Of a stretch of 64,000 nucleotides of DNA, positions 10,497 through 39,068 are shown in pieces (position 1 is the stretch's first letter; each line of letters opens with the position of its first letter). The position numbers and the translations under genes were made by a program. Under the pieces are notes generated by a model, which saw only the letters and a list, made by a program, of their open reading frames with translations, did not search any database and was not told the DNA's origin. The stretch is taken from NCBI GenBank assembly GCA_964442185.1, contig CAYTWT010000293.1:17902-81901 (forward strand). The letters are read 5' to 3'. The stretch is from an uncultured Acidobacteriota bacterium (GTDB taxonomy: Bacteria > Acidobacteriota > Vicinamibacteria > Fen-336).

Positions 10497-11861
10497 ATGT
10501 TGAACAAGCTGATGAGGGACGCGGCGGAAGCCGTCCGAGACATCCCCGACGGCGCCTCGATCATGGTGTCGGGCTTCGGCCTGTGCGGGATTCCCGAGAA
10601 CCTGCTCACGGCGCTGCGCCAGCACGGGGCCCGGAACCTCACGATGATCAGCAACAACGCCGGCACGAACGACTTCGGGATCACGATCCTGCTGCAGAAC
10701 AAGCAGGTGCGCAAGATGATCTCGACCTACGTCGGCGAGAACAAGGTCTTCGAGAAGATGGCCCTGGCGGGCGAGATCGAGGTCGAGCTGAGCCCGCAAG
10801 GCACCTTCGCCGAGCGCATGCGCGCGGGTGGCGCCGGCGTTCCGGCGTTCTTCACACCCACCGGCTACGGCACGCTCATCGCCGAGGGCAAGGAGGTGCG
10901 CTGGTTCGGCGGCAGGCCCCACATCCTGGAAACGGGCCTCCGCGCCGACTATGCCTTCGTCAAGGCATGGAAAGGCGATCAGGCGGGCAACCTCCTGTTC
11001 CGCCGCACCACCCGCAACTTCGCGCCGGTGATGGCGATGGCGGCGAGGTGCACGATCGCCGAGGTGGAGCAGGTCGTGCCGGCGGGCGGCATCGATCCCG
11101 ATTCGGTGACGACGCCGGGGATATTCGTGCAACGCGTGTTCCAGGGCAAGAACTACGAGAAGCGCATCGAGAAGCGCACGCTGCTCGGTGGCGGCGGGGT
11201 CGAGATCGATCCCAGGCGCGAGCGCATCGTGAGGCGCGCCGCGAAGGAGATGAAGGACGGCTTCTACGTGAACCTGGGCATCGGCATGCCGACACTCGCG
11301 GCCAACTATCTCCCGGAGGGCGTTAAGGTCGTGCTTCACTCCGAGAATGGCATGCTGGGTGTGGGGCCGTATCCGGCGCCGGGCCAGGAGGACCCCGACC
11401 TGATCAACGCCGGCAAGGAAACCGTCACCGAGTTGCCTGGCGCGTCGTACTTCTCGAGCGCCGACTCCTTCGCGATGGTGCGTGGCGGCCACGTCGACCT
11501 CACGATTCTGGGCGCGCTCCAGGTCGACAAGGCGGGCAATCTCGCCAACTGGATGATCCCGGGCAAGATGGTCAAGGGGATGGGCGGGGCCATGGATCTG
11601 GTCTCGGGTGCGAAGCGCGTCGTCGTGACGATGGAACATTCTGCAAAGGACGGCTCGCCCAAGATCCTCGACTACTGCACCCTGCCCCTGACCGGCCAGC
11701 GCTGCGTCAACGTCATCGTCACCGAGATGGCGGTGATCGAGGTCGTGAAAGAGGGTCTGCTGCTCAAGGAAATCGCCCCCGACACGAACCTAGAGGCCGT
11801 GAAGAAGGTCACTGGAGCCGTGCTGATCGTCGACCCGGCCTTGAAGAGCATGGAGTTCTAG
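10497..11861 (+). CDS. 3-oxoacid CoA-transferase, fused subunit A + subunit B (ScoA/ScoB-like)
   Basis: N-half matches CoA-transferase A ([13 protein letters not shown] region), C-half matches subunit B (ending ...LIVDPALK) in one 454-aa ORF. Confidence 0.85.
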
Positions 11862-11884
11862 GCTTCCTTCCCAGAGAGCCGGGA

Positions 11885-11911
11885 TTGACAAGTCCGGCTG
11901 TCTTTTACTAT
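11885..11911 (+). promoter_or_regulatory. Candidate sigma-70 promoter for rho (TTGACA-N15-TACTAT) followed by ~80-nt leader with GAGCGAG/CTCGCTC hairpin
   Basis: Consensus -35 hexamer in AT-richer intergenic region 130 bp upstream of rho ATG. Confidence 0.35.
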
Positions 11912-11991
11912 CGTCGTGCCTATCCGGTCCAAGTGAGCGAGAGAAAGACCTTCCTCGCTCTCCTTCATTTCGCCGCTCCCGCGAGATCCTC

Positions 11992-13506
<1,515 letters not shown>

Positions 13507-16805: not shown

Positions 16806-17456
16806 ATGATACAGGCGTTTCATGTTTACAAGCAGTACGACCGGGACTCCATAGCACTCTCGGACATCACGCTGCATGTCGAAAAGGGCGAGTTCTGCTT
16901 TCTCACGGGCCCCTCGGGCGCCGGGAAGACGACCTTCCTCAAGTTGGTGTTCCGCGAGGAGCTGCCTACCCAGGGCCAGATCCTCGTGGGCGGGCGCAAC
17001 GTCACCGCGATTCCCGATGTGCAGATCCCCGAGCTGCGGCGCTCCATCGGCGTCGTGTTCCAGGACTTCAAGCTGCTCAAGCGGAAAACCATCCTGGAGA
17101 ACGTCGCCTTCGTGCTGCGGATCCTCGCGGTGCCGCACAAGGAGCAAAAGCGGCGCGCCTTCGCGGCGCTCAAGGCCGTGGGCCTTCACCACAAGATGCA
17201 CGCCTACCCGATGCAGCTCTCAGGCGGTGAGCAGCAGCGTGTGGCGATCGCCAGGGCCTTGATCAACGAGCCGATGCTGCTGCTGGCGGACGAGCCCACG
17301 GGCAACCTCGACCCCGAGATGGCCCAGGAGATCATGACCCTCTTCCAGGAGGTCAACGCGCGCGGCACGACGGTGCTCGTTGCCACCCACGATCGCGAGA
17401 TGATCCAGCGCATGGGTAAGCGCGTGATCACGATAGAGCGGGGGCGCGTGAGTTAG
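16806..17456 (+). CDS. ftsE: Cell-division ABC ATPase FtsE
   Basis: MIQAFHVYKQY..GPSGAGKTT..LSGGEQQRVAIARAL..LLADEPTGNLD; FtsE-specific N-terminus. Confidence 0.88.
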   Translation: MIQAFHVYKQYDRDSIALSDITLHVEKGEFCFLTGPSGAGKTTFLKLVFREELPTQGQILVGGRNVTAIPDVQIPELRRSIGVVFQDFKLLKRKTILENVAFVLRILAVPHKEQKRRAFAALKAVGLHHKMHAYPMQLSGGEQQRVAIARALINEPMLLLADEPTGNLDPEMAQEIMTLFQEVNARGTTVLVATHDREMIQRMGKRVITIERGRVS

Positions 17457-17605
17457 GCGTTCGACAGGGCACGCTCCGCGCTGTGATGAAACAGCGCAGG
17501 AATTGCGATCGGCCCCAAGGGCCGCGCGAAGGCCTTGCCGCCCTGGCCTCGCAAGCGGATTGCGTGCCGGCATCTTGATTGCATCAAACTCGAAAGGGGT
17601 TCCCC

Positions 17606-18367
17606 ATGGCGCTGGGATCGGGAGGCATGAGCCGGGCGCGGCGTGGCGCCCTTTTCGGCGCCTTCTGGTCGGCGGGTGCGCCTATCGGCTTGCTGTTGGT
17701 GCGCGGCCTCGCCGCGGGCACGCTTGATGCAGCCTTCGTCATGGCTGACCTGCGGGCCGAGGCTTGGAGCTACGCCTACGTTGCCGCGTCTACGGCTGTT
17801 GCCTTCACGCTGCTCGGATTCATCTTGGGCCGCCAGGCCGACCAGTTCTTCGAGGCCTCGACCAGCGACCCACTCACCGGACTGCGCAACCGGCGGGCGC
17901 TGCGCGAGTCTCTGGTGAGAGAATGGGCCAGGGCCCGGCGCTACCAAACACCCTTGTCGGTTCTCGCCATCGACCTCGACGGGCTGAAGGTCATCAACGA
18001 CAGCCTGGGCCACAGGGCCGGCGACGCGGCCATCGACTGCGCTGCCCAGGCGCTCGTCCGAAATTCGCGCCAGGCGGACACGGCGGCCCGCTGGGGAGGC
18101 GACGAGTTCCTCCTGCTAGCGCCAGAGACCGACCGGGCCGAGGCTCTGCGCCTCGGCGAGCGGGTTCGCGCCGTGTGCACCGAGCAGGCGCAGAGCGGCA
18201 TCGGGCGTCGGCTCACGCTCTCGATCGGCGTCGCCACGCGAACACCCGGCTCGTGTTCGGAAGCCACCGAATTGGAAGCCACCGAAGAAGAGCTGCTGCG
18301 TGCCGCCGATCAGGCGCTCTACCAGGCCAAGCGCGCCGGTGGCAACTGCGTCACGGCGGCCGAGTGA
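17606..18367 (+). CDS. Membrane-anchored GGDEF diguanylate cyclase
   Basis: N-terminal 3 TM segments, then RNRRAL...AIDLDGLKVINDSLGH...RWGGDEFLLL GGDEF active site; AAAGGGG SD 6 nt upstream of ATG. Confidence 0.8.
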   Translation: MALGSGGMSRARRGALFGAFWSAGAPIGLLLVRGLAAGTLDAAFVMADLRAEAWSYAYVAASTAVAFTLLGFILGRQADQFFEASTSDPLTGLRNRRALRESLVREWARARRYQTPLSVLAIDLDGLKVINDSLGHRAGDAAIDCAAQALVRNSRQADTAARWGGDEFLLLAPETDRAEALRLGERVRAVCTEQAQSGIGRRLTLSIGVATRTPGSCSEATELEATEEELLRAADQALYQAKRAGGNCVTAAE

Positions 18368-18402
18368 AGGCTTGGCCCTTGGGTATGTGAGGTGCGCGGC
18401 GC

Positions 18403-19017
18403 TCAGGCGCCAAGCATGGCGCTGACACGGGCGACAACCGCCTCGAGCGCGACGGCATTCTCGGCGCCTTCGGGCACAATCAGGTCCGCATAACGCTTGC
18501 TGGGCTCGACGAACTCGAGATGCATCGGACGCACCGAGGACAGATACTGCCGCTCGACGGACTCGAACGAACGGCCGCGATCCTTGATGTCGCGGCGCAG
18601 ACGCCGCAGGATCCGCACGTCGGCGTCGGTGTCGATGAAGAGCTTGATATCCATCAGCCGACGCAGCGGCTCTTCGGCCAGGATCAGGATGCCCTCTAGC
18701 AAGATCACGGGTCGTGGCAGCAGGGGATCGCTCAGGACTCGCCGCGAATACATGGCGTGGTCATAGCTCAACTGCGGCGCCGGCCGACCGGCCTTGAGGT
18801 CGCGCAGGTCCTGCACCAGCAGTGTCGTGTCGAAGGCGTCGGGATGATCGTAGTTGATCGCCGCCCGCGCGGCGGCGTCCAGGTTGCTACCGTCCTTGTA
18901 GTAGGAGTCCTGCGCAATCGTCACGCAGCGCTCGCGGTCAAAGCGCGAAGCGACTTTCTCTGCAAAGGAGGTCTTGCCGGAGCCAGTCCCGCCTGCGATC
19001 CCGATCAGAACGCCCAC
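18403..19017 (-). CDS. udk: Uridine kinase
   Basis: GIAGGTGSGKTS P-loop, DSYYK, LLEGILIL motifs. Confidence 0.9.
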   Translation of the reverse strand: MGVLIGIAGGTGSGKTSFAEKVASRFDRERCVTIAQDSYYKDGSNLDAAARAAINYDHPDAFDTTLLVQDLRDLKAGRPAPQLSYDHAMYSRRVLSDPLLPRPVILLEGILILAEEPLRRLMDIKLFIDTDADVRILRRLRRDIKDRGRSFESVERQYLSSVRPMHLEFVEPSKRYADLIVPEGAENAVALEAVVARVSAMLGA

Positions 19018-19022
19018 TGGCG

Positions 19023-19038
19023 CTGGATTATAATCCAG
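19023..19038. promoter_or_regulatory. Perfect 16-bp palindrome CTGGATTATAATCCAG containing a consensus -10 (TATAAT) in the 26-bp udk/ftsX divergent spacer
   Basis: Self-complementary AT-rich element in a ~70% GC genome, 5-10 bp from both start codons. Confidence 0.4.
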
Positions 19039-19043
19039 GGCGC

Positions 19044-19937
19044 ATGCTGCTCCTGCGGGCCCTCGCGTACTTCGTGGAGGAGGCGTTCACCAGCCTCTGG
19101 CGGAGCCGGCTCATCAACGCGCTTTCGATCGGCACCATCGGTGTCAGCCTGTTCGTGCTCGGCGCGTTCCTGACCGTGGCGAGCAACCTGAATGCGGTCG
19201 TCACGCGCTGGACGCAGAAGGTGCAGGTGACGTTCTACCTCGAAGACGGCCTCGAGCCACGGATTCGCGAGATGTTTGAAAGCCGGCTCAAGGACGATCC
19301 CGCCGTGGAGAGCCTGGCGAGCGTGAGCCGGCAGGCGGCTCTGGATCGGTTTAGAGCGCTGTTCCGCGATCTGCGCGCCTTGCCCGACGACCTCGGCGAG
19401 AACCCGTTCCCGGAATCGCTCGAGGTGACAGTCAAGGCGGGGCACCAGTCGCCCGAGGAGATCGGCCGCTTCGTGGCCGCTTTCGGAGGGGCGGCCGGCG
19501 TCGAGGAGGTGCAGTACGACCTGCTGTGGATCGAGCGACTCGCAACGGTGGTGCGTTTGGTGCGTGGCCTGGGCGGCGTGCTCGGCGGGATCCTCGCCCT
19601 CGCCAGCATCTTCACGATCTCGAATGTGATCCGCCTGACTGTCTATGCTCGCCAGGACGAACTCGACATCATGCGCCTGGTGGGCGCGACGCGGGCCTAC
19701 GTGCGCGGGCCGTTCATCGTCGAAGGCATGCTGCAGGGAGGGCTCGGCGGCCTCGTGGCGGTGGGCCTGCTCTGGGGCGCACTGCGCTTCGTCTCGCGCG
19801 ACGTGCTGGCCGCCTCGGAGTTGCTGGGCCGCGCTGCGGTCTTCCTGCCCGGGGAATTGAGCGTCGCGATCGTGCTGGGTGGGATGACGGTCGGGCTGGT
19901 CGGAAGCCTCGTGAGCCTTGGCCGCAGCCAGGTGTAG
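19044..19937 (+). CDS. ftsX: Cell-division permease-like protein FtsX
   Basis: FtsX-family N-terminus, periplasmic loop, 4 TM; RLV conserved region IRLTVYARQDELDIMRLVGAT. Confidence 0.85.
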   Translation: MLLLRALAYFVEEAFTSLWRSRLINALSIGTIGVSLFVLGAFLTVASNLNAVVTRWTQKVQVTFYLEDGLEPRIREMFESRLKDDPAVESLASVSRQAALDRFRALFRDLRALPDDLGENPFPESLEVTVKAGHQSPEEIGRFVAAFGGAAGVEEVQYDLLWIERLATVVRLVRGLGGVLGGILALASIFTISNVIRLTVYARQDELDIMRLVGATRAYVRGPFIVEGMLQGGLGGLVAVGLLWGALRFVSRDVLAASELLGRAAVFLPGELSVAIVLGGMTVGLVGSLVSLGRSQV

Positions 19938-19945
19938 GGCCGTCT

Positions 19946-20707
19946 CTAGAAGGTGTAGGTTCGGCCCTGCACCATGACGTGCAGGTTACGGATCTTCAGC
20001 GCTTTCAGCTCGCGCTTGATCACAGCCAGGTGCTTGGGCTTGCAGCCGTAAATGTAGACCGGCACGTCCCGCTTGAGCTTCTTTAGTTCGAGCTCCAGCA
20101 TCCAAGGCGTCAGGTGGCCGGAGACCTTGGCCAGTTCCCTCAGTTCGTTGGGGAAGGAACACTCCGTGATCACGCCCTTCAGGCGCTTGGTGTTGTTGGT
20201 GATCTCCCAGAAGCGATGCGTTGGCCCCGTGTCGCTCGAGAAGGCGAGCGCGCCCTTCTTGTCCTCGAGGATGTAGCCCGCGGTCGGCACGCTATGCGAG
20301 ACGTGGACCGCGCGAATCCTGAGGCCGTTCACGACGAAGGGCTCCTCGGGCTGGACCTCGACGAGCTTCAAGACCGGGGTCATGTCGTTGGGGAGGCAGG
20401 TAAAGTCGGGCCAGGTGTGATTGTTGAAGAGATGATTCCGCATCGACGCGACGACCTCGGGGATCGCGTAGATGCGTAGCGCGAAACCAGGTGCCGTGAA
20501 GTTGTTGTCGATCAGAAACGGGAGGGTGCAGGTGTGATCCAGGTGCGAGTGCGAGATGAGGATGTCCTTGACGCGCTCCTGCTCACGCAGTGACAGCGCG
20601 TTCGAGACCCAGCCGGCGTCGAGAGCAAGCGTGTCGTTCACGAGGAACGACGTCATGCCGTGGCCCGGGATGTTGCCCCCGTAGCACCCAAGAGCTCTGA
20701 GCTTCAT
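19946..20707 (-). CDS. Class II 3',5'-cyclic-nucleotide phosphodiesterase (metallo-beta-lactamase fold)
   Basis: HxHLDH signature ISHSHLDHTC; ~58% GC versus ~70% flank. Confidence 0.7.
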   Translation of the reverse strand: MKLRALGCYGGNIPGHGMTSFLVNDTLALDAGWVSNALSLREQERVKDILISHSHLDHTCTLPFLIDNNFTAPGFALRIYAIPEVVASMRNHLFNNHTWPDFTCLPNDMTPVLKLVEVQPEEPFVVNGLRIRAVHVSHSVPTAGYILEDKKGALAFSSDTGPTHRFWEITNNTKRLKGVITECSFPNELRELAKVSGHLTPWMLELELKKLKRDVPVYIYGCKPKHLAVIKRELKALKIRNLHVMVQGRTYTF

Positions 20708-20934
20708 GCGCGCCTAGGGCTCACAGCCCTGCCGCCGCGAGGCCTCGTCTTCCATGCTGTTACGTCCCAAGTCTCTCATCTTTCGGCGGTTACTGGGCAG
20801 TAGCTCAGGGACGGTAGCACGCGCTCTCGGGAAGTGTCAAGTGTACGGCGCACTGCGCCACGCCGCGCTGGGCACGGCTCATACAATGGTTGGTATGTTG
20901 CTGCGTAAGATCCCCGAGGGATTGTACTTTTCCC

Positions 20935-20964
20935 TTGACACGCCAAAGGGCCGATCCGTAAACT
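20935..20964 (+). promoter_or_regulatory. Candidate sigma-70 promoter TTGACA-N18-TAAACT
   Basis: Consensus -35 hexamer, TAnnnT -10, in 507-bp lower-GC intergenic region. Confidence 0.35.
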
Positions 20965-20971
20965 CGACGCA

Positions 20972-21200
20972 CGCGAGAAAGGAGGTGGTCCAGTGGACAG
21001 TAGCAAACCCCGCGAGGTGGCTGACGCCTAGGTCATAAGCCGAGCGAATCCATCCTGAATCGCTTCAACTGGATGCCTCCAAGCCGGGTCGCAGGATCGG
21101 TCCCGCGAAATCGGAAAGAGGCCCGCTAGGCCGTAGCCGACCTGGCGAATCCCAACAGCGCACCGGGCCCTGGGGAGTTGGTGTACTCTCCAGGGTTTTC
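20972..21200 (+). ncRNA. Candidate ~230-nt small transcript (sRNA or small-protein mRNA) bounded by promoter and intrinsic terminator; contains SD AAAGGAGGTG + GTG-initiated 12-codon ORF (20993..21031)
   Basis: Promoter at 20935-20964, perfect SD at 20978-20987, 12-codon ORF, terminator hairpin at 21168-21199. Confidence 0.3.
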
Positions 21201-21210
21201 GTGTTTCTGG
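21168..21210 (+). terminator. Rho-independent terminator: CCCTGGGGAG-loop-CTCTCCAGGG followed by TTTTCGTGTTTC
   Basis: GC stem plus U-tract on + strand only (A-tract precedes on - strand, so not the OPT terminator). Confidence 0.45.
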
Positions 21211-21214
21211 CAGC

Positions 21215-23362
21215 CTACTTCGCGCTGTCGAGCGGCTTGCGCGCGAAGTGGTAGAGGGAGAAAGCGAGCGCCGCGAAAGCGAGGATCCCGACCAGTGCGC
21301 TATCGTGGATGGCAGGCAGGGCCGCGCCTAGATCGATCGCTGCCTTGGGCAGCCATTCCCACTTCTCGGCGAGCTTGACGACGATCCCGAGCAGACCCAC
21401 GATGCCGCCCGCGGCGATGAGGCCGCTGGCATAGAGAGCGCCCGGGCTCGCCTCGTCGTCGTGCTTCTTCTCCTGGCCGCGCTCCACGAGCCAGCGCACG
21501 AGCCCACCGCAGAAGATCGCCGCGGTCGTGCCGATGGACAGGTAGGAGCCGACGGCGAAGCTCAGCGAGCGGATCCCGAGCAACTCGACGCCGATCACGA
21601 GAAAGACGCCAAGGAACACGAGTCCCCACGGCAGCCGTCGGTCGAGGATGCCGCGGATCACGACCGACATGAGGCGCGCCTGCGGCGCCGGAGCCTCCTG
21701 GCTGCCGATGCCCTGCACCCATTGAATCTCGATGCGCCCGGTCGCGGGATTGAACAGATAGGTTCCCTCGGGGATGGTCGGCGAACCGAGCACGTTGAGC
21801 AGCTTGTAGCTGTGCCCTTCGTAGCTGTAGGACTCCTCCAGGACGCTCACGCCCTCGGGAAGCTGCGCGGCGTCTACGGCGATGTCGGCTGGGACGTATT
21901 TCTCGAGCCCCTTGTTGACCGCGAGCAGCGTCACGCCGATCACGAACGAGGACGCGAGCACGCCCAGGAAGAGGCCTAGCTGCTGCGCTGACGGCGTGGC
22001 GCCCACCAGGTAGCCCGTTTTCAGGTCTTGCGAGGTGTTGCCGGCGTTGGCGGCGGCGATGCACACCGTGCCGCCGATCATCAGGGCGAGCGCGCCGTAG
22101 GCGCCGCTCGTCCAGCCTTGCAACAGGAAGAGCCCGCACGTCGCCATCAGGGTAGCGATCGCCATCCCTGAGATCGGGTTCGAGGAGGTGCCGATCAGCC
22201 CGACGAGCCGCGAGGACACGGTGACGAACAGGAAGCCGAAGATCACGATCAGGATGGACGCCAGCAGGTTGTGCAACGCGCTCGTGTGTGCCCCGGGCAC
22301 CGGCTTGAACGTGAGCAGCAGCCACATCGCGACGACGATCGCGGCGGAGCCTGCCAGCACGACGGTCATCGGCAAATCGCGCGCCGTGCGACCCACGCTC
22401 GGCGCCGCCTGGGGCGAGCGACTCTTGCGCAGGTCGGCCGCGCCGGCCTTGAGCGCGGCGATGATGGTGGGTAGCGTGCGCGCCAGCGTGATGAGCCCGG
22501 CGGCCGCCACCGCGCCGGCGCCGATGTAGCGGATGTAGAAGTTCCACATCTCGCTCGAGGTCATGTCCGCGATTGGCTTGACGCTCGGGTAGATCGGCGT
22601 CGGCACCATGCTGCCGAAGAACTTGATCGTGGGCATCATCACGAGCCAGGAGAAGACGCCGCCCGAGAAGATCACGCCGGCGATCTTCGGCCCGATGATG
22701 TAGCCGACGCCCAGGTACTCCGAGGTGGTCGCCGCGCGCAGCGACGCTCCCGGCAGCCACTTCGGGTCGTAGGTGGGGATCGGATTCAGCACCGCCAGCG
22801 CGTTCTCGTTCTGGAACACCGTGTACAGACTGCCCAGGCCGAGGCCGTAGAAGACCCGGCTCGCGAATGAGCCGCCCTTCTCGCCCGCGATCAACACGTC
22901 GGCGCAAGCGGTGCCCTCGGGATAGAGCAGGTTGCCGTGCTCCTTGACGATCAGTTGGCGCCGCAGCGGGATCATAAACAGTACGCCCAGGATGCCGCCG
23001 ATCATGGCGAGCAGCAGGATGCGCGTGTACTCGAGCGGGAAGCCCAGGAAGATCAGCGCCGGCAGCGTGAAGATGACCCCGCCCGCCACCGACTCGCCCG
23101 CGGAGCCCGTGGTCTGGACCAGGTTGTTCTCGAGGATGCTGGCCTTGCCGAGGGCCCGCAGCAAGCTGATCGAGAGCACGGCGATCGGGATCGAGGCCGC
23201 GACCGTCAGGCCCGCACGCAGGCCCACGTAGACCGTCACGGCGCCAAAGACGATACCGAACAGCATCCCGAGAATGACAGCCCGGGGCGTGAACTCGGGC
23301 ACGTTCGCCGTGTCGGCGATGTAGGGCTTGAACTCGGCGGCCTGGGGTTTCTCTTCAGCCAT
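21215..23362 (-). CDS. OPT-family oligopeptide transporter
   Basis: 715 aa, ~16 TM, OPT-family conserved segments. Confidence 0.85.
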   Translation of the reverse strand: MAEEKPQAAEFKPYIADTANVPEFTPRAVILGMLFGIVFGAVTVYVGLRAGLTVAASIPIAVLSISLLRALGKASILENNLVQTTGSAGESVAGGVIFTLPALIFLGFPLEYTRILLLAMIGGILGVLFMIPLRRQLIVKEHGNLLYPEGTACADVLIAGEKGGSFASRVFYGLGLGSLYTVFQNENALAVLNPIPTYDPKWLPGASLRAATTSEYLGVGYIIGPKIAGVIFSGGVFSWLVMMPTIKFFGSMVPTPIYPSVKPIADMTSSEMWNFYIRYIGAGAVAAAGLITLARTLPTIIAALKAGAADLRKSRSPQAAPSVGRTARDLPMTVVLAGSAAIVVAMWLLLTFKPVPGAHTSALHNLLASILIVIFGFLFVTVSSRLVGLIGTSSNPISGMAIATLMATCGLFLLQGWTSGAYGALALMIGGTVCIAAANAGNTSQDLKTGYLVGATPSAQQLGLFLGVLASSFVIGVTLLAVNKGLEKYVPADIAVDAAQLPEGVSVLEESYSYEGHSYKLLNVLGSPTIPEGTYLFNPATGRIEIQWVQGIGSQEAPAPQARLMSVVIRGILDRRLPWGLVFLGVFLVIGVELLGIRSLSFAVGSYLSIGTTAAIFCGGLVRWLVERGQEKKHDDEASPGALYASGLIAAGGIVGLLGIVVKLAEKWEWLPKAAIDLGAALPAIHDSALVGILAFAALAFSLYHFARKPLDSAK

Positions 23363-28083: not shown

Positions 28084-29101
28084 CGCCTAAGGGCCGACGC
28101 TGCAGACTTCTTGCCTGCACGGCAGTGACGGCGATCGCGTCGACGATGTCGTCGATGGAACAGCCGCGCGACAGGTCGTTCGCCGGCTTCGCGAGGCCCT
28201 GGAGAATCGGGCCGATAGCCTTCGCTCCTGCGAGCCGCTCGACCAGCTTGTAGCCGATGTTGCCAGAGTCGAGGTCCGGGAAGACGAGGACGTTGGCTTG
28301 GCCCGCGACCGCGCTACCCGGGGCCTTGCTCTCGCCGACGGCGGGTACGAGCGCCGCGTCGAGTTGAAGCTCGCCGTCGCACACGAGAAGGCTCGATCGC
28401 TCGCGCGCCATCCGAGCCGCCTCGCGGACCTTGCGCGAACGCGCGTGCTCTGCGCTACCGTGCGTCGAGAACGACAAGAACGCGAGGCGCGGCGTCTGCC
28501 GCAGGAACAGGCGGGCACTTTCGGCCGCGAGCAAACCGATCTCGGCGAGCTCCGACGCCGTCGGCTCGGGGTTGACACCGCAATCGGCGAACACCAGCAG
28601 GCCTTCGTCCCCGAACTCAGCCCTTGGCGTCGCCATCAGCATGAAGGACGAGACCCGTTCCACTCCGGCGCGCGGGCCGATGCCACGCAACGCCGCACGC
28701 AGAGTCGCGGCTGTCGTGCTCCGCGCGCCCGCTACGAAGCCGTCGTATCGACCCGCCGCCACCTGGAGCGCACCCCACAGCAGGGGGTCAGAGAGGTGAC
28801 GGCGTGCCTCCTCGCCGACGACACCGCGGTGCCGCACGCGGGCCTCGTAGACGCCCAGGGCCGCTTCGAAGGCCGGTCCGGCCGAGGGAACCGCCTCCTG
28901 GGTGATGCCGGCGAGATCGACCGAAGCCTCGCGCGCCACTGCGTCCAACGCCGCTGGGTCGCCGAGCAGGGTGACGCGGGCAATGCCCTCAGCAGTCGCC
29001 TTGGCGGCGGCCCGCAGTGTGCGGGGCTCACTGCCCTCAGGCAATACGATCGAGGCGGAGACCTCGCGGGCGCGGGCGCGGAGCCGATCCACGAAACCCA
29101 T
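28037..29101 (-). CDS. pta: Phosphate acetyltransferase
   Basis: Start at [14 protein letters not shown]; Pta/PTA_PTB motifs ...[31 protein letters not shown]. Upstream ~490 codons of the track ORF are artefact. Confidence 0.85.
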
Positions 29102-29206
29102 CGCCGCGGACGCTAACACAAGTTGGGGACGCTTTCGTTGACACGCGGCGAGCCGCTGTGATAGCGTTTCCGCCTCGTAACTACCTGAAGCTGTGGGGGA
29201 ACGCCA

Positions 29207-29542
29207 ATGAAAATCGTCGAGCGCCAGGTCGAGGATGTGGTGATCTTGGATCTTCATGGGAAGATCCTGATCGGCGAAGGAGACGACGCGCTCCGCGACG
29301 CCGTCACCCGGGTCGTCGACAGCGGAAAGACGAAGATCCTCCTGAATCTGGAGGATGTGCCCTACGTGGATTCGGCCGGCCTGGGCGAGATCGTGCGGTG
29401 TTACACCACAGTCAGCCGCAAGAACGGCAAGCTCAAGCTGATCAACCTCACGAAGAAGATCAAGGACCTGCTGTCGATCACCAAGCTGCTCACGGTCTTT
29501 GAAACCTACGAGTCGGAATCCGAGGCGATCAAGAGCTTCTAG
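29207..29542 (+). CDS. STAS-domain anti-sigma-factor antagonist (SpoIIAA/RsbV-like), orphan
   Basis: Classic STAS layout with conserved phosphorylatable Ser region DSAGLGEI; ~57% GC. Confidence 0.8.
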
Positions 29543-29611
29543 CAAGGGCACTTCGGCCCGTCCGGGCGGCCCTGGTTCGCGCCACGCGGCCTTAGGGAGC
29601 CGCTCCTTTCC

Positions 29612-30508
29612 ATGAAACCGCTTCTCGTCTCCCTCCGGCCGCACCAGTGGACGAAGAACCTCCTGGTCTTCGCTCCGCTGGCGCTGTCCAAGCATCTTTT
29701 CGAGCCGGAGCCGTTCCTGCGCGCGCTCGTCGCCTTTACCCTGTTCTGCGGGCTCTCGGGCGCTGTGTACCTCGTCAACGATGTCGTCGACGTCGAGCGC
29801 GACCGGCTGCATCCGAGAAAGCGGCTGCGGCCCGTGGCGAGCGGTGTGCTCTCCGCGCGGACGGCTTGCACCTTCGCGGGCCTGATTGGGCTTTCGTGCC
29901 TCGGCGCTTCGTTTGCGCTGGGTCCGGCCTTCGGCCTCTCGGCCCTGGCCTATCTGCTGCTGAACCTCGCCTACTCGTTGAAACTCAAGGAGATCGTGAT
30001 CGTGGACGCACTCGCGCTCGCACTCGGTTTCGTGGTGCGAGCGGTCGCGGGCGCCGTGGCGATCGGCGTCGTCTTCAGCGCTTGGCTGCTGATCTGCACC
30101 ATCCTGCTGGCCCTGTTCCTGACCTTTTGCAAGCGACGGCACGAGCTGACCTTGCTCACCGATGCGGCCTCCGAGCATCGCAAGAGCCTCGGGGAGTACA
30201 GCCCGTATCTGCTCGACCAGATGATCGCCGTCGTAACCGCGTCGTGCCTGATGGCGTACGCCTCGTACACGACCGCACCGGAGACGATCGAGAAGTTCCA
30301 GACCGACCGCCTGCCCTGGACCATTCCTTTCGTGCTCTACGGCATCTTCCGTTATCTTTATCTCGTGCACCGGCGGGAGCTGGGCGGCAGCCCGACGGAC
30401 ATCCTCCTGACCGATCTGCCGCTCATCCTCGACGTGGTCCTGTGGGCCCTTGCGATCGTGGTGATCGTGTACACGGCCCAGGGCGCGCCGATGCCGCTGG
30501 GGCGCTGA
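29612..30508 (+). CDS. UbiA-family polyprenyl-phosphate phosphoribosyltransferase (DPPR-synthase / Rv3806c / NoeC-like)
   Basis: N-terminus [15 protein letters not shown] and first Asp-rich motif [23 protein letters not shown] resemble decaprenyl-phosphate phosphoribosyltransferases rather than UbiA/MenA; 8-9 TM. Confidence 0.7.
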
Positions 30509-36701: not shown

Positions 36702-37534
36702 CGCAAGGTCCTCAACAGCTCGAGCAACGCCTCGGTCGTCGGGGCGCCCTTGAGGATCGAGGCCGCCCGTGCAATCTGGTTGACGGCTTCCTCGATCGCT
36801 TCGGCGCCAGCCCCTTTTTCGATCTCGCCCTTTGCCCTGGCGTAGTGCTTGTTCACGACGCTCTCGCCCACGGAGCCGAGCAGATTGTTGCAGGCATCGC
36901 GCACTGTGAGCAGCTTCGCGAGCAGTTCGCCGCTCGCGGGGCCCCCGGCGGCCAGCCTGCCCGCGGCCCCCGGCTTTGCGGCGGTCCCGGCGAGAACGGT
37001 TTCCCGCAGCCGGATCAGCCCGGTGGCGATCAGGCCGTAGAGGATCTTGGCGGCGTCGAACACGGAAAGGCCGCTCGCCAGCGCGATCTGCTTGATCGAG
37101 CGCGTGGCATCGATCTTCGACAGGACCAACCACTCGCTCGTGTTCAGGTTGATCTGGCCCTCTCGCGTTTCCTGCACTACGAACTCCGGCACCAGTTCGG
37201 TCGAAGGGATCTTCTTGGAGAGCACCCGCCACTCGTCGAGCCGCCGCGCCGCCTCCATGAGCAGGTTGGTGTTGCTCTTGGAGATGGTGCGTAGCTCCGT
37301 CGAGATGCCGGGCTCGAACTTGAAGTCACCCCGGCTCCAGATCGCGAGCGCATAGACCGCTTCCTCACCCGTGGCGTCTTCGAGCTGGGCATGGACGATC
37401 TTCCCGTCGTTCAGGTAGATCTGGCCCTTGAGCGCGCCGTCGGTGAGGTGGAACAGGCCCGTTTTCCCACTGACGCTTATGAGCTGGATGATGTCCGGTA
37501 GATGAAGTTCCGCGAGCGAGCCCTGGAAGGCCAT
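36698..37534 (-). CDS. DUF4388-domain protein
   Basis: N-terminal GSLAELHLPDIIQLISVSGKTGLFHL...GKIVHA DUF4388 signature; last gene of HK-RR operon. Confidence 0.75.
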   Translation of the reverse strand: MAFQGSLAELHLPDIIQLISVSGKTGLFHLTDGALKGQIYLNDGKIVHAQLEDATGEEAVYALAIWSRGDFKFEPGISTELRTISKSNTNLLMEAARRLDEWRVLSKKIPSTELVPEFVVQETREGQINLNTSEWLVLSKIDATRSIKQIALASGLSVFDAAKILYGLIATGLIRLRETVLAGTAAKPGAAGRLAAGGPASGELLAKLLTVRDACNNLLGSVGESVVNKHYARAKGEIEKGAGAEAIEEAVNQIARAASILKGAPTTEALLELLRTLR

Positions 37535-37613
37535 ATCAGAAGGCTCTAAACCTCAGAATTGTCTGCCAATTAGAAGAGGCGAGGTTATCAAGGCGCAAAG
37601 GCGCCTGTCAAGA

Positions 37614-39068
37614 TCAGGCCGGCGTTGGCTTGGCCTGGCTCAGTTCCACTTCACGGCTTGCGGGGTGGCCGCTGCGCCTCTCGCGCTCGCGGGGAATCGC
37701 GATGTTGTGACGCTTGATCATCTCGTTCAGAGTCGTGGGCTTCAGGCCCAGGAGCCGGGCGGCTTCCTTCTGCACGCCGCGGGTCGACTCCAGGGTCGAC
37801 TCGATCAGACGCCGCTCGAAGCTCGCGATCACGTCCTTGAAGCTGATGCCCTCGGGCGGCACAGTCAGGTGCGGCACGTGGAAAACCGGGGCGCTACGCA
37901 CGTGGTCGGGGATGATGTCGCGCTCGATTTGCATGTCGGTGGTGAGCACGACGCCACGCTCGATCACGTTTTCGAGCTCGCGCACGTTGCCCGGCCAGTC
38001 GTAGTCCATCAGCACCTGAAGCGCTCCGGGTGCGACACCCGTCACGGTCTTGCCGTTCTCGCCCGCATACTTGTCGACGAAGTGCATGGCGAGGGCCGGG
38101 ATATCCTCTTTGCGCTGGCGCAGTGGCGGGAGCTGGATCGCGATGACGTTCAGGCGGTAGTAGAGATCCTCGCGAAAACGGCCCTCTTCCACAGCGCGGC
38201 GCAGGTCGATGTTGGTCGCGGCCACGATCCGCACGTCGACCTTGACCGTCTCGACGCCACCGAGGCGCATGAACTCACGCTCCTGCATCACGCGTAGCAG
38301 CTTGGCCTGGGTCTCGAGCGGGATGTTGCCGATTTCGTCGAAGAAGAGCGTGCCCTTGTCCGCCAGCTCGAAGAGGCCCTTCTTTGCGTACACCGCGCCG
38401 GTGAAGGCGCCCTTCACGTGGCCGAAGAGGTTGGACTCGAGCAACTCATGGGGAAGGCTTCCGGAGTTGACCACGATGAAGGGCCGTTCAGCACGCGGGC
38501 TGTTGGCGTGGATAGCCTTGGCCACCAACTCCTTGCCGGTGCCGCTTTCGCCGACCACCAGGATCGTCGAGCGCGAGGGAGCCGCCTGCGAGATCAGACC
38601 AAAGACCTGCTGCATCCGCTGGCTCTTCCCGATGATCTCGGTAAAACGCGCCTGGTCGCGCAAAGCGGTGCGCAGTTGGCGGTTCTCGTCCTGCAGATGC
38701 CGCTGCTTGAGCGCGTTCCGCAGGATGTGCAATACCTCTTCGTGCTTGAAGGGCTTCGTGACGTAGTCGAAGGCGCCCTTCTTCATGGCGGTGATCGCGG
38801 TCTCGACGGAGGCATAGGCGGTGATCATCAGCACGACGAGATCGGGATCCACGCGCTTCAGCTCCTCGAGCACCTCGAGGCCGCCAAGCTCCGGCAGCAT
38901 CACGTCCACGATGGCCGCGTCGAAGCCGGCCTTGCGGGCGAGTGAGAGGCCTTCGACCCCAGTCTCGGCCAGCGTCACCCGGTAGCCCGACTGGGTCAGC
39001 AGTGTCGTGAGCACGTCGCGCATCACCTCTTCGTCGTCGACGACGAGGATGGATTCGCCCTTGCTCAC
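37614..39068 (-). CDS. Sigma-54-dependent response regulator (NtrC family: REC + AAA+ + HTH)
   Basis: REC Asp (IVDVMLPE), GESGTGKE Walker A, GAFTGA sigma-54 contact motif, C-terminal Fis-type HTH. Confidence 0.9.
   Translation of the reverse strand: MSKGESILVVDDEEVMRDVLTTLLTQSGYRVTLAETGVEGLSLARKAGFDAAIVDVMLPELGGLEVLEELKRVDPDLVVLMITAYASVETAITAMKKGAFDYVTKPFKHEEVLHILRNALKQRHLQDENRQLRTALRDQARFTEIIGKSQRMQQVFGLISQAAPSRSTILVVGESGTGKELVAKAIHANSPRAERPFIVVNSGSLPHELLESNLFGHVKGAFTGAVYAKKGLFELADKGTLFFDEIGNIPLETQAKLLRVMQEREFMRLGGVETVKVDVRIVAATNIDLRRAVEEGRFREDLYYRLNVIAIQLPPLRQRKEDIPALAMHFVDKYAGENGKTVTGVAPGALQVLMDYDWPGNVRELENVIERGVVLTTDMQIERDIIPDHVRSAPVFHVPHLTVPPEGISFKDVIASFERRLIESTLESTRGVQKEAARLLGLKPTTLNEMIKRHNIAIPRERERRSGHPASREVELSQAKPTPA

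Follow-up and report, generated by a model that had tools for sequence, protein, structure and literature searches.

The 64,000-nt stretch of DNA analysed here (the window, within which all positions are numbered) carries a gene for a predicted class-II-type cyclic-nucleotide phosphodiesterase (PDE), which lies between ftsX and the gene for an OPT oligopeptide transporter and is separated from the latter by an intergenic spacer (Table 1). An earlier reading, made from the sequence only, had placed the limits and neighbours of gene and spacer correctly and had taken the two together for a low-GC island, its spacer non-coding, that had possibly been acquired horizontally. The spacer indeed lacks a long protein gene, but two promoters lie in it, together with a conserved gene for an RNA that includes a 12-codon open reading frame (ORF). 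We consider it likely that the locus is a vertically inherited piece of Vicinamibacteria chromosome made up of two divergent units: the class-II-type PDE gene and a gene for a small mRNA that would dock on the ribosome.

Table 1. Genes and predicted sequence elements at the PDE locus (SD, Shine-Dalgarno sequence; P1 and P2, helices of the small RNA)
Feature	Position	Strand	Description or basis
ftsX	19044-19937	+	Pfam FtsX_ECD and FtsX
PDE gene, 253 aa	19946-20707	-	ORF call and Pfam
Spacer, 507 bp	20708-21214		Between PDE gene and OPT gene
PDE 5' leader	20708-20810	-	Conserved motif ATGAGAGACTTGG at 20779-20767
PDE promoter	20840-20811	-	-35 TTGACA (20840-20835), extended -10 TGCTACCGT (20819-20811)
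Small RNA promoter	20935-20964	+	TTGACA - 18 nt - TAAACT, 10/12 matches
Small RNA, ~235 nt	20971-~21206	+	Predicted from promoter, terminator, nhmmer and Rfam ends; divergent from PDE gene
Helix P1	20972-21014	+	CGCG (20972-20975) pairs with CGCG (21011-21014)
Extended SD, AGAAAGGAGGUGGUCCAG	20976-20993	+	18 contiguous pairs, one of them G·U, with the canonical 16S 3' end
Small ORF, GUG...UAG, 12 codons, MDSSKPREVADA	20993-21031	+	Translation; stop codon UAG at 21029-21031
Second SD-like motif (SD2), GAGGUGG	21014-21020	+	Inside the small ORF; invariant in alignment A3
Helix P2, long-range	21016-21164	+	GGUGGCUGACGCCUAGGUC (21016-21034) with GACCUGGCGAAUCCCAACAGCGCACC (21139-21164)
Intrinsic terminator	21165-21206	+	14-bp hairpin (stem 21165-21198), then UUUUCGUGUUU
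OPT oligopeptide transporter gene	21215-23362	-	Pfam PF03169, 302.7 bits

The PDE protein is of the class-II type on a metallo-beta-lactamase (MBL) fold, as had been proposed, and the ISHSHLDH stretch on which that proposal relied is present at residues 51-58. Its top Pfam family is PF02112 (PDEase_II; 62.9 bits against a gathering score of 23.7, E=3.7e-17), which is matched in two stretches, the best of them aligning residues 43-135 with profile positions 80-175 of 340. PF12706 (Lactamase_B_2) scores 58.7 bits against a threshold of 27. The five MBL metal-binding motifs (D30; S52-H53-S-H55-L-D57-H58; H138; D159; H198) make up a full binuclear ligand set, and 33 homologues show no variation at D30, H53, H55, L56, D57, H58, H138, D159 or H198. 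Among solved structures, yeast PDE1 alone gives a significant sequence match (4ojv, E=1e-6). An AlphaFold2 model of the protein (predicted local distance difference test score 82.3, predicted template modelling score 0.85) agrees with the fold, and in a Foldseek search it matched 4ojv, 6kns and 1y44 with probability 1.0, the top match being YhfI (6kns, E=4e-15). The protein is cytoplasmic and has no signal peptide; the fold begins with its first beta strand right at the N-terminus, and a longer start was excluded because there is an in-frame stop codon upstream.

Thomson et al. distinguished typical class-II enzymes (PF02112, with HxHLDH) from atypical ones of the Rv1339 type (PF12706, with [T/S]HxHxDH), and YhfI was the template for Rv1339 modelling (PMC9293780). 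The residues S-H-S-H-L-D-H fit both motifs and the size is that of the atypical group; the protein is therefore placed at the border of the two groups and appears, from its sequence, to be intermediate between typical (yeast Pde1) and atypical (Rv1339/YhfI) class-II enzymes. With the typical group, which includes yeast Pde1 (PDB 4OJV), Vibrio fischeri CpdP, Dictyostelium PdsA and Myxococcus xanthus PdeE, it shares HxHLDH and the MBL fold. It resembles Pde1 in structure (template modelling (TM) score, TMq, of 0.77 to 4ojv), but Pde1 has 369 aa instead of 253 and is only ~19% identical. CpdP, in contrast to the window protein, has a signal peptide. With Rv1339 and YhfI the protein shares the size class (~245-275 aa), the cytoplasmic location, PF12706 and the fit of S52-HSHLDH to the atypical motif; it differs from them in scoring higher with PF02112 than with PF12706, in its 17-18% identity to YhfI and in its phylum. 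The Apyc1 anti-Pycsar nucleases and their host homologues (PDB 7U2R, 7U2S, 7T28) are likewise small MBL-fold cyclic-nucleotide hydrolases (TM ~0.7), but the window PDE is 15-18% identical to them, has no phage homologue, is encoded by a chromosomal core gene with housekeeping neighbours and scores 30.9 bits with NCBIfam NF041851 (cut-off 400). Against a longer, PROSITE-type class-II signature, H-x-H-L-D-H-[LIVM]-x-[GS]-[LIVMA]-[LIVM](2)-x-S-[AP], the HSHLDH-T-C-T-L-P-F-L-I-D of the window protein would show a mismatch at the first position after DH.

At the level of the family, the most likely activity is hydrolysis of 3',5'-cyclic AMP (cAMP) and/or cyclic GMP (cGMP) at the binuclear metal centre; the enzyme would convert these to the 5'-nucleotide and thereby end cyclic-nucleotide signals. 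That the protein is instead another small MBL-fold phosphodiesterase or nuclease, and not a 3',5'-cyclic nucleotide monophosphate (cNMP) phosphodiesterase, is unlikely but deserves some weight. Candidates of this kind would be an RNase Z/BN-like enzyme, a YhfI/Apyc1-like enzyme acting on cyclic CMP, cyclic UMP or other cyclic nucleotides, or a PhnP-like 2',3'-cyclic phosphodiesterase. The structure search does not separate cNMP phosphodiesterases from RNase Z, PhnP and Apyc1: YhfI (6kns), PDE1 (4ojv), RNase Z (1y44), Apyc1 (7u2r) and PhnP (3g1p) are about equal, with TM scores of ~0.7-0.77. The PF12706 score nearly equals that of PF02112, many orthologues are called 'ribonuclease BN' by JGI, and the best NCBIfam matches are RNase Z and PhnP models (~30-38 bits). 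These NCBIfam matches, which include a 'cyclic nucleotide-degrading phosphodiesterase' model, are weak, however, lying 8- to 13-fold under their cut-offs, and those to RNase Z and PhnP are ~8-fold short; the curated RNase Z models TIGR02651 (38.1 bits against 292.95), NF000801 (34.4 against 252) and NF002558 (38.2 against 315) are not reached, and at 253 aa the protein is below the ~300 aa of the RNase Z models. PF02112 is the top Pfam family, far over its threshold, the HxHLDH motif is exact and PDE1 is the sole significant sequence match in PDB. Furthermore, expression of Rv1339, a related enzyme of the atypical class-II group, brings down cAMP in M. smegmatis (PMC9293780).

The second unit lies in the spacer. 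An alignment of the spacer from 26 loci contains a ~290-bp block with ~75% nucleotide identity and long invariant runs, and this block keeps a fixed distance from the PDE start even where the OPT gene is not the neighbour. The small RNA promoter was the sole sigma-70-like site listed by a simple promoter scanner in 19800-21400, and its hexamers are invariant in the 26 loci. The terminator ends 9 nt from the stop codon of the OPT gene (which is on the opposite strand), and its stem covaries, with three pairs changed on both sides. Promoter and terminator, both on the + strand, delimit a predicted RNA of ~235 nt. Relatives were collected by a scan of one genome per species, which found the PDE gene in 49 genomes, 48 of them close relatives; nhmmer detected the RNA at a single site in the window and in 28 of the 49 species loci (E 1e-13 to 1e-62), where it lies upstream of the PDE gene and nowhere else. 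At gathering thresholds Rfam has no match in the whole window, and ARAGORN identified no tRNA or transfer-messenger RNA there, so the spacer RNA is outside the catalogued families at curated thresholds. Two longer spacer ORFs (94 aa on the + strand and 76 aa on the - strand) were rejected, as they run across both promoters and the RNA, and neither is kept intact among the aligned spacers. The PDE leader, the two back-to-back promoters (~95 bp apart) and the RNA gene fully account for the spacer.

Near its 5' end the RNA has an extended SD sequence, the last G of which (20993) is the first base of the GUG start codon. The 16S 3' end used for the pairing was the canonical ...CUGGAUCACCUCCUUUCU-3' (PMC5711450) and not that of this genome. 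Across 28 sequences (alignment A3) the extended SD is invariant save for one G-to-C change in L011 (GGUGCUCC). In Vicinamibacteria the 16S tail may read GGAUCACC or GGACCACC; with the latter, a Watson-Crick pair could take the place of the G·U in the duplex. Tails with GGACCACC do exist: one match of the metagenome scan described below (L167:6045 region, - strand) is a true 3' end of a 16S rRNA gene, from an organism with 40% GC, and reads ...GGAUGGACCACCUCCUUUCU.

The small ORF is intact in all 28 aligned sequences, in which it has 12-19 codons. The spacing from the SD to an invariant GAGGUGGCUG is 26, 29, 35 or 38 nt, all in the same frame, and the single 27-nt spacing (L011) is offset by a UUG start that has moved by one base. 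The ends of the peptide (MDS... and ...REVADA) are conserved within Vicinamibacteria, while its middle is not. Within SD2, AGGUG begins 14 nt before the stop codon, and 6 nt separate SD2 from the last sense codon. In L016 (4565-4791, - strand) the usual UAG is mutated and the ORF is extended to 19 codons, and the new stop codon once more has GGAGGUG at -14, which fits with the distance between the SD-like motif and the stop codon being under selection.

The extended SD and the greater part of the small ORF lie within helix P1 (4 bp), which shows a GC-to-AU compensatory change in L008 and L009. The 5' strand of the long-range helix P2 includes SD2 and the UAG stop codon, while its 3' strand lies just before the terminator; P2 thus closes a variable central domain of ~100 nt, which is absent in L011 and L044. 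In the RNAalifold consensus, P2 is formed by GGU.GCUG.CGCU..GGUC with GACC.GGCG...CAGC...ACC. Pairing reaches 95-100% in helices 4-6, where the inner GGUC/GACC pairs have undergone compensatory changes. Over the consensus structure, 97.8% of cells are paired, compared with 33-48% when partners are slid, six pairs are compensatory, and none of 500 shuffles was as good. The z-score of the minimum free energy of the single RNA sequence is -2.6.

By its design, this RNA resembles rreB and rreR. Hahn et al. (2016) described rreB as a stand-alone mRNA of 165 nt, in which 17 nt are complementary to the 16S 3' end and the last of them is the G of the GUG start of a 14-codon ORF; it binds 30S subunits and is weakly translated, and its start codon influences its stability (PMC5711450). 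Experimental descriptions of extended-SD small mRNAs, which have no known function, come from alpha-proteobacteria only, the sole group in which analogues of rreB were reported (PMC5711450). The window RNA shares with rreB and rreR a short stand-alone transcript with its own RpoD-type promoter and terminator (both predicted in the window), 16-18 nt of 16S complementarity (in the window RNA, to the canonical 3' end) of which the last nucleotide is the G of GUG, an ORF of about a dozen codons and a predicted hairpin that takes in the downstream part of the extended SD. It differs in its length (~235 nt against the 165 nt of rreB, owing to the variable central domain), in the one G·U of its duplex and in having 12 codons in place of 14-18.

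Two Rfam families resemble it below their thresholds. The first is Ms_IGR-5 (RF02471), a validated transcript in Streptomyces according to the literature, homologues of which have ribosome-protected reads in mycobacterial Ribo-seq (PMC4974804). By the Rfam criterion the window RNA is not a member of this family, but the alignment is full-length (model positions 1-184) and falls at exactly 20971-21204; the shared blocks are GGAAGGAGGUGGUCC, GAGGUGGCUG, GCUAG, GGCGAAUYCC...CACC and the terminator. Bona fide metagenome Ms_IGR-5 loci (anatomy compared using L088, L112, L081, L145, L062, L111 and L128) also have a P1 helix around the extended SD, a 12-codon ORF ending in E-V-x-x-x-stop and a second SD motif. 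In contrast, the window RNA comes from Acidobacteriota and not Actinobacteria, its central insert is ~108 nt as opposed to ~35, its start codon abuts the extended SD and its genomic context is different, as three of six Ms_IGR-5 loci have a class IV aminotransferase neighbour. This gene (PF01063) lies directly 5' of the RNA on the same strand in three of the six loci (L088, L112 and L081, and L145, L111 and L128), and the adjacency may be conserved actinobacterial synteny. The second family is CC2171 (RF01867), a Caulobacter small RNA (sRNA) and probably the rre homologue of Caulobacterales. The 5' consensus of this family, GAAAGGAGGUGAUCCAGUG, matches 20977-20995 almost exactly, but the window RNA scores 13-16 bits against a gathering score of 75 and has no similarity past the 5' end. 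From these comparisons, we regard the window RNA as a putative new member of the rre / Ms_IGR-5-like extended-SD small mRNAs, below the threshold of existing models.

What the comparisons show is the anatomy of the RNA, its conservation, its covariation and the preservation of its reading frame; 30S binding, translation and any physiological role are inferred. The 5' end of the RNA would form an 18-bp duplex with the 16S 3' tail that leads directly into the GUG start, and, by analogy with rreB, the RNA would dock tightly on 30S subunits and be only weakly translated. A terminating ribosome could then re-engage its anti-SD at SD2, the 6-nt gap being an ideal distance from SD to P-site. If the RNA were not translated, SD2 would be buried in the long-range P2 next to the terminator. 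Control over the state and stability of the RNA would thus lie with the ribosome.

A metagenome scan for GRAAGGAGGTGGTCC, a query of which the start codon and the stop spacing were not part, returned at least 120 loci. Sixty-nine of 120 listed have a start codon a few bases from the motif and an ORF of 9-25 codons, and in the same 69 the stop codon falls 13-14 nt after the second AGGU[GA]. P1, formed by the four bases before each SD motif, is represented by 11 fully complementary haplotypes among the matches listed (including CGCG/CGCG, CCAG/CUGG, CACA/UGUG, CACG/CGUG, CGGG/CCCG and CCGG/CCGG), and its paired fraction in these matches is 0.834, compared with 0.569±0.026 when partners are shuffled. 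When 19 of the loci were tested, eight were found to be bona fide Ms_IGR-5 (55-169 bits), and the other subfamilies were below threshold like the window RNA. The peptides vary by subfamily (…EVADA, …EVAGR, …SGGTSG) while the RNA motifs persist, which indicates that the constraint is on the RNA and its interaction with the ribosome. A subfamily with CCGC/GUGG or CCAC/GUGG as P1 (L054, L059, L074, L085, L102, L107, L109, L115, L131, L133, L134, L139, L142, L155 and L168) reads its second SD, GGAGGUA, in the other frame, giving the peptide ...SGGTSG, and has its stop codon 13 nt after AGGU. Outside Vicinamibacteria, the support for P2 consists of compensatory examples found by eye: L088 (GGUGGCUGCG/CGCAGCCACC), L112 (GGUGGCUACG/CGUAGCCACC), L080 (GGUGGCUGG/CCAGACCACC) and L098 (GGUGAUCGG/CCGAAUCACC). 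A functional link between the RNA and the PDE was rejected, as among the 120 loci listed a PDE homologue is nearby in only two, both of Vicinamibacteria type. Because Ms_IGR-5 loci lie beside other genes and the PDE gene is near only the Vicinamibacteria-type loci, the adjacency of RNA and PDE gene represents lineage synteny and not a functional module.

It is possible, and we propose it only tentatively, that the spacer RNA, Ms_IGR-5, the alpha-proteobacterial rre/CC2171 RNAs and unnamed high-GC soil subfamilies form one cross-phylum superfamily of ribosome-docking small mRNAs with a two-site design, which may be previously undescribed. In this design an extended SD would lie within a covarying hairpin at the start codon and an SD-like motif 13-14 nt before the stop codon, the second motif otherwise being sequestered by the 3' CACC-containing strand beside the terminator, and one ribosome would be gripped by its anti-SD at initiation and again at termination. 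Such a two-site RNA, if it exists, could sense or buffer free 30S/70S ribosomes. The presence of the rre design in Acidobacteriota and in the Ms_IGR-5 RNAs of Actinobacteria suggests a widespread class of ribosome-associated RNAs, of which the Rfam Ms_IGR-5 model spans only a part. The P1 helix, the spacing from SD2 to the stop codon and the frame-preserving indels provide comparative constraints for such an RNA.

Several observations weigh against the proposed reading of the locus as a PDE gene and a divergent ribosome-docking mRNA. First, in 21 of the 49 species loci the RNA was not detected in the ±5 kb around the PDE gene. Second, its best Rfam match, Ms_IGR-5, reaches only 21.9 bits (24.6 in L011) against a gathering score of 45. 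Third, the 18-bp duplex was assessed against the canonical 16S sequence only, as the 16S 3' end of this organism is outside the window. Fourth, most P2 pairs are invariant within Vicinamibacteria and thus little informative, and a family-wide test of P2 in the metagenome loci (best ungapped 10-nt complement) did not discriminate, giving 8.75 pairs, compared with 8.49 in swapped controls. Finally, the structural neighbours of the PDE protein include RNase Z and PhnP, which are not cNMP enzymes.

Two other explanations of the spacer element were considered. The element could be a base-pairing sRNA, a cis-acting leader or, on the - strand, a mimic of the 16S tail (CACUGGACCACCUCCUUUCU) that titrates SD sequences. 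Nucleotide conservation does exceed coding needs, the middle of the peptide is unconserved, one metagenome subfamily reads SD2 in another frame and a 16S-tail-like sequence does occur on the - strand. We nevertheless regard these possibilities as improbable: promoter, terminator U-run and Rfam alignment are all on the + strand, where no gene follows that a leader could serve; the ORF is intact in 28 of 28 sequences with all indels keeping the frame; the distance from SD2 to the stop codon is fixed across subfamilies; and among the RNAs it resembles, rreB is 30S-bound and weakly translated (PMC5711450) and Ms_IGR-5 homologues are ribosome-protected (PMC4974804). It is slightly more improbable still that the element is a small-protein gene whose 12-aa peptide is the functional product, its RNA features being incidental. 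The ORF is always kept and the peptide ends are conserved within Vicinamibacteria, but the conserved codons overlap RNA elements (the 16S complementarity, P1 and SD2/P2) and synonymous sites are conserved too, the peptides are wholly different between subfamilies that retain the RNA motifs, and ~170 nt of structured, covarying RNA lie 3' of the stop codon. Moreover, synthetic RreB and RreR peptides are unstructured, and growth was unchanged by overexpression of rreB mRNA or by a construct meant to overproduce RreB (PMC5711450).

The promoter assigned to the PDE gene was read by eye; the simple scanner omitted it since its second hexamer matches too poorly. Between TTGACA and TACCGT there are 18 nt, which contain the TG of the extended -10 TGCTACCGT, and in alignment A1 (26 loci) CTTGAC and TG.TA...T are invariant. 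In the motif of the PDE leader, 'ACTT' is invariant in this alignment and 'ATGAG' is frequent but not universal. In the window the motif ATGAGnnACTTGG opens a 21-codon upstream ORF (20714-20779, - strand) that ends 6 nt short of the PDE ATG, while in L005 the stop codon of this ORF overlaps the PDE start (ATGA) and in L015, L024 and L038 its ATG is missing. The motif may be a protein- or RNA-binding site rather than an upstream ORF.

The dip in GC content that had suggested a foreign origin is real, and no other in the window is as deep: of all 1269-bp stretches in the 64 kb, 19946-21214 has the lowest GC (0.04th percentile), and the total GC of the PDE ORF is the lowest among 46 ORFs with high GC at third codon positions (GC3). 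Its size had been overstated, as the gene has 60.9% GC and not 58%, and the spacer 61.3% and not 55%; the surroundings, given as ~70%, have a mean of 67.5% over the window and 64-71% in the local flanks. The GC3 of the PDE gene (0.87) is similar to the window mean (0.846±0.05), and its Karlin codon bias against all other genes (B=0.248) ranks 27th of 42, while GC1 (0.57) and GC2 (0.38) both fall some two standard deviations below the mean. The deficit therefore reflects amino-acid composition and not foreign codon usage. Specifically, Ala, Gly, Pro and Arg make up 23% of the protein, compared with 35% elsewhere, and Phe, Ile, Lys, Asn, Tyr and Met 26%, compared with 17%. A lower GC content is normal for promoters and an RNA gene in a high-GC genome, as found in the spacer. 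Other 762-bp stretches with less than 62% GC occur at 11251-12013, 29026-29788 and 36976-38013.

The PDE gene is a core, vertically inherited gene of the Vicinamibacteria lineage. The 48 close relatives, in which PDE identity is 62-94%, are metagenome-assembled genomes of Vicinamibacteria/Acidobacteriota except for two with doubtful labels; the 49th match (24% identity) is in a Bacteroidota genome. In nearly all of the 48 species loci the gene is tail-to-tail with ftsX, followed by udk and ftsE, and in about half of the related loci the OPT gene is upstream. The GC content of the gene is below that of its flanks in every related locus (by 5-8 points in nearly all), and in 44 of them the difference from the neighbouring genes is -0.004±0.020 for GC3 and -0.072±0.021 for GC1+2. 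PDE identity to the window tracks that of FtsX, Udk and FtsE (Spearman 0.53, 0.69 and 0.49, respectively). The 21 loci in which the RNA was not detected (L019, L025-L043 and L047) are from more distant Vicinamibacteria and keep the PDE-ftsX-udk-ftsE block. The two doubtful genomes, L026 and L031, are labelled 'uncultured beta proteobacterium' and 'uncultured Spirochaetota bacterium', respectively; both carry a Vicinamibacteria-type PDE (71-73% identity), keep the ftsX-udk-ftsE synteny and have ~70% GC, and the labels are probably binning or naming errors.

In a protein library of 1.84 billion representatives, 419 match the PDE protein at E≤1e-30. Full-length relatives beyond its own 50% cluster are only 34-46% identical, and the named ones outside the lineage are from Nitrospirae, Methylomirabilis and Bdellovibrionota. 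A search for PDE homologues in phages gave no match and plasmid matches were only 25-30% identical; there were no integrases or other mobility genes, and the only repeats flanking 19946-21214 were short, imperfect and attributable to chance. Recent horizontal acquisition of the PDE gene is refuted by these data, and that gene and spacer are a low-GC island inserted between ftsX and the OPT gene is highly improbable: the low GC of this 1.27-kb stretch and its ORF speaks for it, but neither GC3 nor codon bias sets the gene apart from the rest of the window, the same dip limited to GC1+2 and the same neighbours recur across 44-48 species genomes, PDE identity co-varies with that of neighbouring housekeeping genes, tRNAs and other traces of mobility or close phage or plasmid homologues are lacking, and outside the lineage no relative exceeds 46% identity. 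A transfer long ago, into the class ancestor, is conceivable, but base composition would bear no trace of it, and it is therefore not what the dip shows. The enzyme class had also been described as rarely annotated in this kind of bacterium; it is in fact lineage-wide (771 clusters at 90% identity) and is routinely named '3',5'-cyclic-nucleotide phosphodiesterase' by NCBI and 'cAMP phosphodiesterase' by JGI.

As regards the PDE, then, the finding is largely ordinary: a modest dip with a trivial cause in a core gene that is already annotated. A GC dip that arises from amino-acid composition is no evidence of horizontal transfer. A short class-II-type PDE is, in addition, a core gene of an abundant and barely cultured soil lineage, and the gene is a reasonable target for the study of cAMP/cGMP turnover in Acidobacteria.

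Recent acquisition is more plausible for a GGDEF diguanylate cyclase gene (PF00990, 139 bits), at 17579-18367 on the + strand between ftsE and udk, than for the PDE gene. A tblastn search found no counterpart in the 49 related loci, where the gap between ftsE and udk is often ~80 bp, and the codon bias of the gene (0.307) is in the upper tail; the gene has the look of an insertion specific to the lineage. The genes ftsE and ftsX (16806-19937 in the window) are separated, in essentially every Vicinamibacteria locus, by the uridine kinase gene udk on the opposite strand. The start codons of udk and ftsX are 26 bp apart (19017 and 19044), which leaves scant room for divergent promoters. At the other end of ftsX, its stop codon and that of the convergent PDE gene are separated by 8 bp (19935-19948) with no terminator between them, and the two transcripts probably overlap at their 3' ends.

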